DNA of 48,878 bases, from the IMG/VR virus record IMGVR_UViG_3300045988_060465, positions 1-48,878 of that record; one strand, written 5' to 3'. Below the pieces are notes generated by a model. That model saw only the letters and a list, made by a program, of their open reading frames with translations, did no database searches and was not told where the DNA came from. Numbering within the stretch: position 1 is the first letter of the stretch; each line of letters opens with the position of its first letter. Of this stretch, positions 5,883-19,340 are shown in pieces. This DNA comes from a virus. The position numbers and the translations under genes were made by a program.

Positions 5883-6300
5883 TTTCTCCTTCTAACTTCT
5901 GTCCACAAAACGGACAACGAGGGTAATATTTGTTTCCATGATACGTTGGAATAGGCACAACTCCATGCTTACACGTTGGGCAACATAACATCATATCGCC
6001 ACACGGCCAAAACTCAATATCTATTGGTTTCTTTGGTGTTTCTTTATCCATAAAATCCTTCAATAATTGAAAATATGCCTTGGCACGGTCAGTTTCTTCT
6101 ATATCTGCTGCTTTGCACGTAATTTGATGTTCTTTTTCAAGAACTTGCAACAATTCTTGGTATTTATTCATTTCATCATCCACTAATTCGACATCATCAT
6201 AATCGTGATTTTTAATTTTTCTTAATGCTTCTTCTTTAGAACTTGCTTCTACATTTCCAACATAAGTACATTTTCCATTTGCATAAAATTTATAATTCAT
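5854..6300 (-). CDS. Hypothetical protein with a C-terminal zinc ribbon
   Basis: CCPTC...CPFCG motif. Confidence 0.4.
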   Translation of the reverse strand: MNYKFYANGKCTYVGNVEASSKEEALRKIKNHDYDDVELVDDEMNKYQELLQVLEKEHQITCKAADIEETDRAKAYFQLLKDFMDKETPKKPIDIEFWPCGDMMLCCPTCKHGVVPIPTYHGNKYYPRCPFCGQKLEGENEDEHMENV

Positions 6301-6592
6301 ACGCTTTTATCTCCTTTTTTAATTCGTCAATAGCTTCTTTAACAAACTTCAAATCCATATCATAGTCACTAACTAAATCTGCCATTCTACAGTTTGAATA
6401 GCCTTGTAACGCACCCTCTAAAGTTGAGTGAAAAGAAACAGATTTCTTGACTTCCGTTACATTCCCATCTTTGCTTTCTTGAAGTACATATTTAGACAAG
6501 ATGTAGCTTTTTCCATCAGATGTAATTACGTATCCGTTCTTTAAATTAATCATTGTTATTGCTCCTTTCTTTGATAATCCTATAAAGCACAC
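6290..6592 (-). CDS. Hypothetical protein, 100 aa
   Basis: ORF. Confidence 0.4.
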   Translation of the reverse strand: MCFIGLSKKGAITMINLKNGYVITSDGKSYILSKYVLQESKDGNVTEVKKSVSFHSTLEGALQGYSNCRMADLVSDYDMDLKFVKEAIDELKKEIKAYEL

Positions 6593-6594
6593 AT

Positions 6595-6759
6595 TTATTC
6601 ATGTTTAATATATCTTTTATCTTTCACTTTCCCGCATTTCAAACACACAAGATACTGAGTCTCACCACTGATACAATGAAACATCTCATTCTTTACGCAC
6701 CAAGTAAATTCATGCTTACAGAATAATCTTTTAAAAAACAATTTAATTTTGTTTATCAT
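6595..6759 (-). CDS. Unlisted small zinc-ribbon ORF, 54 aa
   Basis: GGAAGGAG RBS, then an ATG and CxH...C...CxxC. It fills a gap in the 60-aa ORF track. Confidence 0.3.
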   Translation of the reverse strand: MINKIKLFFKRLFCKHEFTWCVKNEMFHCISGETQYLVCLKCGKVKDKRYIKHE

Positions 6760-7720: not shown

Positions 7721-8167
7721 TTATAACACAATGTTTTCAATCAATGCTCTTTTTTCAAGAACAGATAAATATAATCCCATGTATTTTTGTTGCTCTCTTA
7801 ATAGTTCAAGTGGGCAATCATGTTTTGTTACTTCTTTTCCAAGCATTGTTTCTACTTCAATTTTGTTGCAGAAATTCTTCAATTTCTCATATCTGATTTT
7901 TACTTGACGATATTCTGCTACAAATCTTTCTTTGTAATCTTCAGAGTTCATTAACTCTACTGTTTCTTTTAATTCCATGTTGTTTTTCTCCTTTTTTTCT
8001 TTGATTTTTCTAATCTCAATTGACGCTGGGTAAATTTGCAAAGCTTTTTGCTTAATTTCAAAAGATTTTTGATTTCTAATCTTATTCCAAACTTCTTTTT
8101 CTGAATCAGCTTCTACGATTTCCGATAATTGAGCGAATATATTTGATTTGAATAAATATTTTGCCAT
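7721..8167 (-). CDS. Hypothetical protein, 148 aa
   Basis: ORF. Confidence 0.4.
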   Translation of the reverse strand: MAKYLFKSNIFAQLSEIVEADSEKEVWNKIRNQKSFEIKQKALQIYPASIEIRKIKEKKEKNNMELKETVELMNSEDYKERFVAEYRQVKIRYEKLKNFCNKIEVETMLGKEVTKHDCPLELLREQQKYMGLYLSVLEKRALIENIVL

Positions 8168-8177
8168 GTTTTTCTCC

Positions 8178-8890
8178 TTAAAATAATGTGCTTGTTTCTA
8201 CTGCAATTCTTTTCTTTGCAATTTGACAATATTCTTTAGATATTTCATATCCTACATATTTTCTTTTGTTAAGCTCTGATGCGATAGCAGTTGTTCCTGT
8301 TCCTAAGAATGGGTCAACAATCGTATCTCCCTCAACACTGAAATTTTTAACAAACCAATCTGCAATTTCGTATTTCATTATTGCTCCATGCCCTTTAAAG
8401 TGTTTTTCATTAACTGAGCTATGCACAATATTTTTGATTGACCCATAGGCTCTAAATTCCTCTGCCTGTTCATTTAAAACAAAGAAATATTCAACTGCAT
8501 TACATACTGATGTAAGTATGTTTCCGTTCTCATCTTTAATCTTGTTGATACTTGGTTGAGGGTTTGTTTTCTCCCAAATTACAATTCCTTTTAATTTATC
8601 TGCGAAATATCCAATGTATTTATAAACATCTTTTTTGTTGAAATATGTTGCTTGAATATTCACAATTACATCTTTCTTGCACACTCTTAACAACTCATTC
8701 GTTACATCAACGATCATCTTGTAATAATTGTTTTTAACATCATCATAATGAGCGTACTTGTCATTTCTTACCCTGTTATATGGAGGGGATGTAATCGCAA
8801 CATCAAATTGATTGTCTTTAATTTCTTTCAATCCTTTTAAACAATCTTGATTATAGATAACCCCCCCGTTAGATTTATCTGTTTCTCCAT
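8178..8890 (-). CDS. N6/N4 DNA methyltransferase (beta class). The ATG at 8890 is out of frame with the body because of a G7 tract; the track ORF 8178..8831 starts at an internal TTG
   Basis: Motif IV DVAITSPPY and motif I IVDPFLGTGTT. The upstream frame encodes the expected N-terminus ...YNQDCLKGLKEIKDNQFDVAITSPPY. AAAGGA-7nt-ATG (8888..8890) becomes in-frame if the tract 8861..8867 is G8. Confidence 0.6.
8861..8867. repeat. Homopolymeric C7/G7 tract at the 5' end of the methyltransferase gene
   Basis: Seven consecutive C on the plus strand. Its length sets the reading frame between the ATG and the catalytic body. Confidence 0.85.
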
Positions 8891-8924
8891 TTATTTATCC
8901 TTTCCATGTTCTCGACTTAATATT

Positions 8925-9524
8925 TTAAAATAATTTGATTTCCTCAAGTCTTTCTTTTGCAATGTCGAAATACTCACTATCTATTTCACATCCAATAAAC
9001 TCATATCCTAATTCTTTACAAGCTACACCTGTTGTCCCACTTCCCATAAAAGGGTCAATTAACCTCTAAAGGCATTTGGCATGGGTGCTTAGTTTTAACC
9101 TTTGATACATTCTTAACTTGGTTTACATTCCACCAATCGTAAAGCTTGCATCCTAACTTGCCTTCCTCTATTCTCTTTTTGATTCTTTTGTCGTTTGGAT
9201 TTTTATATGGTTGAAGCACTTGCTTGAAATTAGGCTCAACACCGAAGAAAGCAATATCTCTATGTTGCTTTGCGGTATTTGAGTTATATACCCATGAGCA
9301 AACTCTTGTTGGCACATCTCCGTTATACAACGCTATCTTGTATAGCGATTCAGGATAATGTATTACAACGTATGGAGTGTTGTTTGTCTTAAACACTTGA
9401 TTTAATAAATATAAATACTCTTGTTCACTCATTTTGTCTTTGTATGTATTGTAGTGATAACCAACATTGAATGGAATTGTTCAGACTTGAGATAATCCAA
9501 ACAATTCACGTTATACAATTTCAT
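8925..9524 (-). pseudogene. Decayed DpnA-like DNA methyltransferase carrying at least two frameshifts
   Basis: Three frame pieces: MKLYNVNCLDYLKSEQF (from ATG 9524), then ...[38 protein letters not shown] (9055..9480), then [32 protein letters not shown] (8925..9065). DPPY is degraded to IPFN. Confidence 0.55.
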
Positions 9525-9727: not shown

Positions 9728-10129
9728 CTAGAATGGCATCCCTTCGTCATTATCATAATGTTCAGGATATGATTGATAATTTACTTGATTTGTAAATGGT
9801 ACTGTTTGTGGTATTGTAGCGTTGTTTAAAGCCAATTCTACGTCCATAACGTACACGCTAATCTTATACACTTTCTGATTCTCTTTGTTCGTGTATGAGC
9901 TTTTTTGAAGCTTTCCATCAACTGCGATATGTTGCCCTCTGAATCCATATTGATTAATATGTTCTGCATTTTCTCCCCATGCAGTGCAATCGAAGAAAGA
10001 TTTAAACTCTTGTCCGTTCTTTCCTTTCTCCTTAACTTCAATTGAGAAGTTACATAAGCTTTGTCCTGTAGCAGTTTTCTTTAAAACAATATCGCTACCG
10101 ATTTCACCTGATAAAATAACTCTGTTCAT
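9728..10129 (-). CDS. ssb: Single-stranded DNA-binding protein
   Basis: OB-fold SSB pattern and an acidic C-terminal tail ...DNDEGMPF. Confidence 0.75.
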   Translation of the reverse strand: MNRVILSGEIGSDIVLKKTATGQSLCNFSIEVKEKGKNGQEFKSFFDCTAWGENAEHINQYGFRGQHIAVDGKLQKSSYTNKENQKVYKISVYVMDVELALNNATIPQTVPFTNQVNYQSYPEHYDNDEGMPF

Positions 10130-18222: not shown

Positions 18223-18251
18223 AAAAAAAGCACTAGAAATTAATCTAGTGC
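18223..18251 (-). terminator. Bidirectional hairpin terminator overlapping the int stop codon
   Basis: gcactaga-aattaat-ctagtgc, an 8-bp stem, with U7 on the minus strand. The int stop sits in the loop. Confidence 0.5.
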
Positions 18252-19340
18252 ATTATCTTTATCCATTAATTTAGCTATTCCTTTATCGGCTTGAGGTAGC
18301 CAATGAGCATAAACACTTAATACAGTGCTTAGATTGTCTCCTAAACGCTTTGCAACGTCATACAAGCTAAAATGTGAGCTTCCATCTCTTACCATATTGC
18401 CAATCATATACGAAGCACATGAGTGTCTTAAATCGTGTATACGAATGATAGGTATTTGTTCTTCGTTGTTCTCGTTTGCAATTTTAATAGCTTCTCTCAT
18501 CCTCGTTCTAACTGTTGTATTGCATACGGGTATATCTATACCGAACACAAATGATTTCTCAGGAACATCCAACATTTCTTTAAATTCTCTATATTCATCC
18601 GATAAAAACTGGGGCATTGTAATTGTCCTATAACTGTTTGGAGTTTTTGGGGTTGTGATTTTATGTAAGTCTTTTGACCATGTTTTTTTAATTGAAATAA
18701 TATTGTTTTCTAAATCCACATCTTCCCAAGTCAAAGCCAATGTTTCACCAATTCTCATCCCCATATAAAATTGATTGTCGAATAGAAGATGATACAAAGG
18801 ATTTTCAACATAAGGAATAAACAAGTTGAATTGTTCCAATGTCCAATACTTCATTTCAACTTTCTTTTCGTTTGGATTTTTAGCCAATTCAACGGGGGAA
18901 CAAGGATTAGTTTCTAAATATCCTTTACGAACTGCAAATCTCAACATCTTATTGATTCTAGATAAATAATTCTTTGCAGTTTCGTATCCTACGTTATTAA
19001 TCATTAATTCCATTGCAACCTCTATATCGTTGGTTGTAATGGATTTTATATTCACATCACCTAAAATATCAATCCATCTTTCAAGCAATCTATTCTGAAC
19101 TCTATAGGTGCTTTCTTTTATTCTCTTTTCTGTATATGCTGCATAGATATTAAGCAATTCCTCAAGTGTGATATTCTTGTATGGGTCTTTCACATTCTCT
19201 TTGAATATGATCTCTGCTTTTACTGCATCTTTCTTTTTTGGAAAGCCACGTTTCTTGTATTGTCTATACTTTCCATTCTTCATTTTGTACGAGCCATAGA
19301 AATACCACGTACCTGTTTTTTCATCTTTTTTTACTGCCAT
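18240..19340 (-). CDS. int: Tyrosine-type site-specific integrase
   Basis: C-terminal HDLRHSCAS...LGD...LSVYAHW with the R..H..R..Y catalytic pattern. Typical N-terminal SAM-like domain. Confidence 0.8.
   Translation of the reverse strand: MAVKKDEKTGTWYFYGSYKMKNGKYRQYKKRGFPKKKDAVKAEIIFKENVKDPYKNITLEELLNIYAAYTEKRIKESTYRVQNRLLERWIDILGDVNIKSITTNDIEVAMELMINNVGYETAKNYLSRINKMLRFAVRKGYLETNPCSPVELAKNPNEKKVEMKYWTLEQFNLFIPYVENPLYHLLFDNQFYMGMRIGETLALTWEDVDLENNIISIKKTWSKDLHKITTPKTPNSYRTITMPQFLSDEYREFKEMLDVPEKSFVFGIDIPVCNTTVRTRMREAIKIANENNEEQIPIIRIHDLRHSCASYMIGNMVRDGSSHFSLYDVAKRLGDNLSTVLSVYAHWLPQADKGIAKLMDKDNALD

Follow-up and report, generated by a model that had tools for sequence, protein, structure and literature searches.

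Methyltransferase A, an orphan β-class N6/N4 DNA methyltransferase gene carried by a temperate phage, is very likely phase variable by slipped-strand mispairing at a poly-G tract in its 5′ part. As far as can be read from sequence, the gene has the traits of a contingency locus: a homopolymer lies in the 5′ part of the open reading frame (ORF), the length of this homopolymer varies between near-identical phages, and the product is either full-length or truncated. A first-pass annotation of the same DNA had proposed such a slipped-strand, phase-variable architecture, which is now supported by the tract lengths in 41 relatives and by the intact bodies of OFF alleles (dN/dS 0.052). The copy in the window, i.e. 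the whole stretch of 48,878 nt (48.9 kb) that we analysed, has seven G's (G7) and is OFF; this length was taken from an assembly consensus, and individual lengths may be wrong.

The phage and the anatomy of methyltransferase A

All long ORFs of the 48.9-kb window are on the minus strand, and its G+C content is 33.9%. The plus strand is strongly asymmetric in composition (T 37%, A 29%, C 20%, G 14%). PHROG matches in the window include the terminase large subunit, the portal, the tape-measure protein, an endolysin and a tyrosine integrase. Judged by these structural, lysis and integrase genes, the window is a temperate siphophage or a prophage thereof, in line with the first-pass annotation, which had placed the methyltransferase on a phage. 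The same protein was present at 97–100% identity on 17 IMG/VR contigs, on 23 human-gut metagenome contigs and on one 156-kb contig of a Holdemanella MAG, pointing to Holdemanella, a Gram-positive human-gut commensal of the Erysipelotrichaceae, as very probably the host of the phage.

Methyltransferase A sits in the early/replication module of the phage. On the minus strand, the gene order is SSB, a 68-aa gene, a broken methyltransferase, methyltransferase A, a 148-aa protein and a dUTPase-like NTP pyrophosphohydrolase. The main landmarks are:

18240–19340: tyrosine integrase (PHROG match)
9728–10129, minus strand: SSB
8925–9524, minus strand: remnant of a methyltransferase cassette of the DPPF type (cassette B), in three ORF pieces of 31, 125 and 40 aa; PF01555
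8178–8890, minus strand: methyltransferase A gene, from the ATG start through the body
7721–8167, minus strand: 148-aa gene directly downstream of methyltransferase A; phrog_774 (unknown function)

Identical copies of the 148-aa gene on other contigs are annotated as PF21825 (Sequestin). Some relatives have, in the place of the PF21825 gene, a PAPS-reductase-like gene of 296 aa (PF01507) that separates the methyltransferase from the dUTPase-like gene. The genes neighbouring methyltransferase A include no res, hsd or endonuclease partner; methyltransferase A is thus not part of a restriction-modification locus of Type I or Type III, the kind that defines a phasevarion. Elsewhere in the window, a region of ∼1.3 kb (1480–2790) holds no minus-strand ORF of at least 70 aa; its minus strand carries a G6 run at 2072–2077, the second-longest G/C run of the window, and the region also contains a G5 run at 2101–2105. 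An Rfam scan of the whole window, with this region included, matched no RNA family, so nothing points to an RNA element at the poly-G tract.

Within and just upstream of methyltransferase A, the following features were read:

8898–8903, minus strand: Shine–Dalgarno-like AAAGGA, with a 7-nt spacer before the ATG (read from the sequence)
8888–8890, minus strand: ATG start codon, which opens a 237-aa ORF in G8 relatives and at which protein cluster P0001 starts
8861–8867, minus strand: poly-G tract, G7, the only G/C run of at least 7 in the window
8837–8890, minus strand: truncated ORF of 17 codons, MEKQINLTGGLSIIKIV followed by a stop, the product of the G7 allele
8178–8860, minus strand: methyltransferase A body (PF01555, β-class), intact but one base off the ATG frame
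8829–8831, minus strand: TTG taken as the start by the ORF finder, giving 217 aa
8778–8789, minus strand: motif IV, SPPY, toward the N-terminus of methyltransferase A
8289–8315, minus strand: AdoMet motif I, DPFLGTGTT, toward the C-terminus of methyltransferase A

In relatives, the place of AAAGGA is taken by GGTGA, GGAGG or AAGGA, and the spacing is unchanged. From the ATG, the short ORF runs ATG GAG AAA CAG ATA AAT CTA ACG GGG GGG TTA and onward to a stop at 8837. The G7 tract, 24 nt past the ATG, takes up codons 9–11. As the first-pass annotation had described, this ORF reads MEKQINLTGG into the tract one base out of frame, and the methyltransferase frame continues upstream of the TTG without an ATG. 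Indeed, the latter frame is open from 8895 (INGETDKSNGGVIYNQDCLKGLKEIKDNQFDVAITSPPY...) and contains no ATG, GTG or TTG until the TTG at 8831. One added G joins the two frames into a 237-aa protein; the annotation had predicted this fusion, and natural G8 alleles encode exactly the 237-aa fused protein. The in-frame tract lengths are G5, G8 and G11, whereas translation of G6, G7, G9 and G10 alleles ends after 12–18 codons.

The G8-fused protein matched PF01555 (N6_N4_Mtase) over profile positions 2–221 of 221 (1.4e-26; 94.3 bits, cut-off 26.7), and methyltransferase A also matched the DNA methyltransferase family phrog_67 (2.3e-40). By sequence, the best solved relative was the N4-cytosine methyltransferase 8s9m (2e-14), followed by DpnA, CcrM and M.PvuII. 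The SPPY motif probably favours N4-cytosine methylation; together with the closest solved relative, it suggests that the predicted mark is 4mC.

Several lines of comparison bear on the true N-terminus. Homologs in GenBank phages align from residue 11–12 of the fused protein (VIYNQDCL), residue 4 of the solved DpnA aligns to its residue 12, and homologs at ∼57% identity begin with MEFEINKIYNMDCLEGL, just ahead of the IYNxDCL segment. Furthermore, cluster P0001 (237 aa, 669 member sequences) starts at the equivalent of the ATG at 8890. We therefore rejected the TTG at 8831 as the real start: it is CTA in many near-identical relatives, where the first in-frame start is an ATG 143 nt past the tract and beyond SPPY, and a protein starting at the TTG would lack the conserved IYNxDCL segment. 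Gene callers nevertheless systematically mis-annotate methyltransferase A as truncated products of 217 aa or 179 aa. Were the 217-aa, TTG-initiated protein the real product, the ATG, the short ORF and the tract would form a leader peptide that tunes translation, and termination–reinitiation would be geometrically possible, with the stop of the short ORF (8837) only 5 nt ahead of the TTG (8831). We regard this as extremely improbable. In the relatives with CTA, translation could begin in frame no earlier than at an ATG past the catalytic SPPY; a TTG start would do away with 20 residues, among them IYNxDCLxGL, which is conserved in all homologs and aligned to DpnA from residue 4 onward; and the short ORF of G9 and G6 alleles stops elsewhere.

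Runs of C7 or longer are expected by chance ∼0.4–0.5 times per 48.9 kb (assuming independent bases and a plus-strand C content of 20%), so the mere presence of a G7 tract is not significant. What makes it significant is where it lies, which codons it uses and how it compares among relatives. As for codon choice, GGG is the rarest Gly codon of the phage (7.4% of Gly codons) and is used twice by the tract, while GGGGGG encodes none of the 45 Gly-Gly pairs in the long ORFs of the window.

Tract length and selection among relatives

We compared the tract in 41 distinct contexts. Duplicates had been left out, and contigs found by a look-up of the exact 217-aa OFF product had been included; this look-up contributed seven of the G7 and G9 contexts. 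All tract data are consensus sequences of short-read metagenome assemblies, several of them from contigs with only 3–5x coverage. The alleles were distributed as follows:

G6: 2 of 41, out of frame
G7: 9 of 41, out of frame
G8: 10 of 41, in frame
GGGTGGGG (L004), synonymously interrupted: 1 of 41, in frame
G9: 18 of 41, out of frame
G10: 1 of 41, out of frame

In the set without the OFF-product look-up, 11 of 37 contigs had in-frame alleles. A second interrupted in-frame form, TGGGGGG (ACG TGG GGG GTT), was present in the representative of cluster P0001, and in L016 the T after the tract is lost, which shifts the ON length. The first-pass annotation had envisaged G7 and G8 alleles among related phages; what we found ranges from G6 to G10 and includes the interrupted in-frame alleles. 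These comparisons rest on metagenomic relatives. Megablast of the 2.1-kb region against GenBank phages gave no match, and protein matches in GenBank phages were all below 60% identity (best 42%), making that collection unfit for testing tract variation.

The indels of the gene lie in the tract. When gene A was aligned to the window, the number of gaps in most cases matched the amount by which the tracts differ in length, and the body measures exactly 684 nt in 30 of 34 complete cases. Identical bodies were found with different tracts, as exemplified by L014 (G10) and L028 (G9), and the identical 217-aa product is encoded by contigs with either G7 or G9. Phylogenetic signal in tract length is almost absent: the correlation with phylogeny was r = 0.03, and nearest neighbours shared the same tract length in 14 cases compared with 8.2 expected (P = 0.04).

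Homopolymers are classic sites of indel errors and several of the contigs have a coverage of 3 to 5, so the lengths could in principle reflect sequencing or assembly error around a tract that is really G8 everywhere, with the gene intact. This explanation appears quite improbable to us. The modal length is G9 rather than the in-frame G8, which does not fit error around a true G8; with only ∼30% at G8 among the contigs not selected for an OFF product, most consensus calls would be false, some too long and others too short, by as many as 2 bases. Contigs disagree at high coverage as well, L030 (71x) having G8 and L036 (187x) G9. Within one contig, the tracts of different cassettes also depart from the in-frame length independently of each other (see below). 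A6 and A7 runs in the same loci were invariant (e.g. 28/28 and 12/12), these control homopolymers being A/T runs only, with no non-methyltransferase G/C run of like length among them. The G6 run at 2072–2077 was sought as a G/C control, and its exact flanks were found in only one other IMG/VR contig. Error would, moreover, leave the existence of the tract, its rare GGG codons and its recurrence across cassette types unexplained. Finally, L053, which has the gene layout of the window and encodes the identical 217-aa OFF product, has a G7 tract as well, a mild argument against a one-off error at the window copy.

Intact bodies were found in alleles both in and out of frame. Thirty alleles have the 684-nt body without a stop or frameshift, and 21 of these are OFF. 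Across the 30, the pairwise mean dN was 0.0075 and the mean dS 0.142 (ratio 0.052), with 17, 11 and 74 variable sites at codon positions 1, 2 and 3, respectively. The body is thus under strong purifying selection whatever the state of the tract.

This result led us to reject the reading of methyltransferase A as a plain pseudogene, in which a one-off frameshift permanently killed an unneeded methyltransferase. Decay does occur in the island: the neighbouring cassette B of the window has clearly decayed by deletions, L042 has a stop and a large deletion, and L023 has a nonsense codon in motif I. A dead gene is, however, highly unlikely in view of the 21 out-of-frame alleles with intact bodies and their dN/dS, the uniform 684 nt of the 30 intact bodies, which leaves no frame-breaking indel outside the tract, and the interleaving of in-frame and out-of-frame alleles among the closest relatives. 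L023 (Holdemanella MAG NZ_CAKVMR010000001.1, 6001–6711), the only copy that we saw within a long bacterial contig, combines an in-frame G8 with a TTA to TAA change in motif I (DPF-stop-GTGTT). Some copies are therefore decaying, and this lysogen may have silenced an ON methyltransferase by another route.

An alternative to DNA switching, or an addition to it, is recoding: slippage of RNA polymerase on the G run, or frameshifting of the ribosome there, could restore the frame in some of the transcripts, so that every allele would make some enzyme and the DNA length would only tune the dose. Continuous partial expression could also account for the purifying selection on a body that is out of frame in most alleles, and bacterial and viral transcription is known to slip on long homopolymers. 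Still, we judge such recoding very unlikely, as the length polymorphism at the DNA level explains the data by itself and the synonymous, interrupted in-frame alleles indicate that a fixed ON frame is viable. To our knowledge, there is also no case of efficient bacterial slippage on G7–G9.

The tract itself looks selected, as suggested by its rare codons and by its conservation in the sequences compared. Homologs of 82–86% protein identity, which sit in other phage backbones, keep it, and their states are mixed as well (L049, G8 and ON; L050, G7 and ON in its own register; L051, G9 and OFF). The first-pass annotation had allowed for relatives without a homopolymer at this position; down to 82% identity, homologs retain it. 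At ∼57% identity the tract is absent and the N-terminus is MEFEINKIYNMDCL; relative to these homologs, the tract is a short LTGG insertion in a permissive N-terminal tail. Only ∼30% of the alleles are ON, near the one in three expected if tract length drifted freely, so the sampled populations give no positive indication that the ON state is selected.

Methyltransferase cassettes in a mosaic island

Between the 68-aa gene and the PF21825 gene lies a mosaic island, in which one, two or three methyltransferase cassettes occur and their order varies. The cassettes are drawn from at least six types, nearly all of which possess a poly-G tract of their own; besides the tract of A, those of B, C, D and F vary in length. 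The tracts lie toward the 5′ end of the genes, and their positions are not homologous between types:

Cassette B: PF01555, DPPF; in frame at G9; lengths seen 8 to 11
Cassette C: phrog_757, FFPC motif (Pro-Cys), no Pfam hit; in frame at G8 or G11; lengths seen 7 to 11
Cassette D: PF01555, DIPY; in frame at G8; seen as G7 to G9 and as a locked GGGGGGTG
Cassette E: PF05869 Dam; G9 restores VFCNPPY, after which a stop follows; G7, in one contig only (L048)
Cassette F: 35–37% identical to A; in-frame length depends on flanking A's (G8 in L018, AA plus G7 in L019); seen as G6 and G7

Cassette F is also present in a Solobacterium MAG. In related phages, as many as three methyltransferase cassettes follow one another, as in L006 (2990–4910); further multi-cassette contigs are L009, L013, L017, L023, L027, L055, L057 and L059. 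In the ∼300 kb of related loci first scanned and in the further loci read, every G/C run of at least 7 fell within a methyltransferase cassette.

ON and OFF states are mixed within single contigs, with A off next to D ON, or A off next to B ON, and the combinations vary from contig to contig. Such mixtures exclude a run-wide sequencing bias and indicate that the switches are independent. A run-wide bias of +1 had been considered for L006, in which all three tracts are one G over the in-frame length, and was rejected on the mixed ON and OFF states of the other contigs.

The island also bears traces of loss and exchange. Compared with the intact versions in L006, L009, L027 and L057, cassette B of the window has lost ∼44 nt, including its own poly-G tract and the DPPF motif, and a further ∼42 nt following HPCQMPLEV. 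The same broken layout of cassette B is found in L053, while L052 and L058 have a different deletion that starts at the tract. Two proteins are composite: P0006 (290 aa) is a chimera of the N-terminal two thirds of methyltransferase A and the C-terminal part of cassette B, and in P0008 (303 aa) the first part of A is replaced by an unrelated N-terminal half, which we take from its sequence to be GIY-YIG-like. The composition of P0006 and P0008 suggests recombination and insertion within the island.

Taken together, Holdemanella phages and related Solobacterium phages might use a swappable island in which n independent switches would give 2^n epigenetic kinds of virion or lysogen, i.e. a combinatorial, phase-variable methylome that serves bet-hedging against the varied restriction-modification and methylation-dependent defences of the hosts. 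We put this forward tentatively, as a possibility to which we would give somewhat less than even chances. If true, the island could, in lysogens, also act as a prophage-driven phasevarion.

Proposed switch and comparison with known systems

In the switch that we propose, translation would start at the ATG at 8890, with codons 9–11 built from the poly-G, and as the prophage or the lytic phage replicates, slipped-strand mispairing would add or remove G's. Alleles with G8 (or G5 or G11) would yield the 237-aa enzyme, and any other length would yield none. By analogy with bacterial contingency loci, such changes would be frequent and reversible within a lineage, leaving any phage or lysogen population as a mix of ON and OFF. 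Given the position in the early/replication module and the lack of an endonuclease partner, the predicted enzyme most likely methylates phage DNA, and possibly host DNA in ON lysogens. ON phages could methylate their own DNA and thereby escape host restriction-modification of matching specificity. OFF phages, in turn, could avoid Type IV (methylation-dependent) restriction or the cost of methylating the chromosome of the lysogen. That bet-hedging of this kind is the purpose of the switch seems to us close to an even chance, if slightly short of it.

Repeat-gated methyltransferases are well documented in bacteria. They include the Type III mod and Type I hsd phasevarions, the Type IIG cj0031 of Campylobacter, and Type II enzymes of Helicobacter and Metamycoplasma hominis (PMC5909438, PMC7383803, PMC4889913, PMC10305163). 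As in these systems, a simple 5′ repeat in methyltransferase A would slip the ORF in and out of frame, and alleles with different repeat numbers coexist within a species. In contrast to them, the phage enzyme is an orphan PF01555 methyltransferase without a res, hsd or endonuclease partner, it is carried in the early/replication module of a temperate phage, and the host is a Gram-positive gut commensal and not a mucosal pathogen. A further difference is that up to three independently gated phage methyltransferases can lie side by side.

Among phages, the nearest parallel is provided by Campylobacter phages, for which hypermutable polyG tracts in receptor-binding genes have been described (Sorensen et al. 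2021, Cell Rep 35:109214, as cited in PMC11868660). According to that account, these tracts also lie within phage coding genes and give rise to ON and OFF phage subpopulations (PMC11868660). As presented there, the tracts gate the receptor-binding proteins of lytic phages, and hence adsorption, in a host that is itself rich in polyG contingency loci, whereas those of the Holdemanella phages gate methyltransferases and the phages are temperate. Gating of a receptor-binding protein does not apply to the window, whose only G/C run of at least 7 is in methyltransferase A.

Orphan methyltransferases as such are known from phages. Many PF01555 or Dam genes are found in GenBank phages, and the prophage-encoded orphan methyltransferase PamA of S. 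aureus has been described (PMC13076061). Methyltransferase A resembles these phage and prophage enzymes in its family, its early/replication position, the lack of an endonuclease and a presumed role in self-protection from restriction; for this group, PamA included, side effects on host gene expression are possible. Unlike methyltransferase A, the PamA-type examples are not described as repeat-gated, so that the Holdemanella phage would add a stochastic switch to a known type of enzyme. In the open-access literature, we found no description of a repeat-gated phage methyltransferase or of an array of such genes. The mechanism of polyG slippage is known, and it is the phage-borne methyltransferase context for which we found no report.

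Phase variation has been regarded chiefly as a strategy of bacteria, and a 2025 review cites a single study, that of the receptor-binding polyG tracts of Campylobacter phages, as a demonstration of phase variation in phages (PMC11868660). With many natural alleles at hand, including locked-ON ones, the system described here is directly testable. If our reading is true, lysogens that are otherwise genetically identical could differ in their epigenetic state, and for gut phages of a single strain, methylation-based host assignment and epigenetic binning could give varying results. The switch would then constitute a second layer of phage bet-hedging, one that acts after DNA entry rather than at adsorption.
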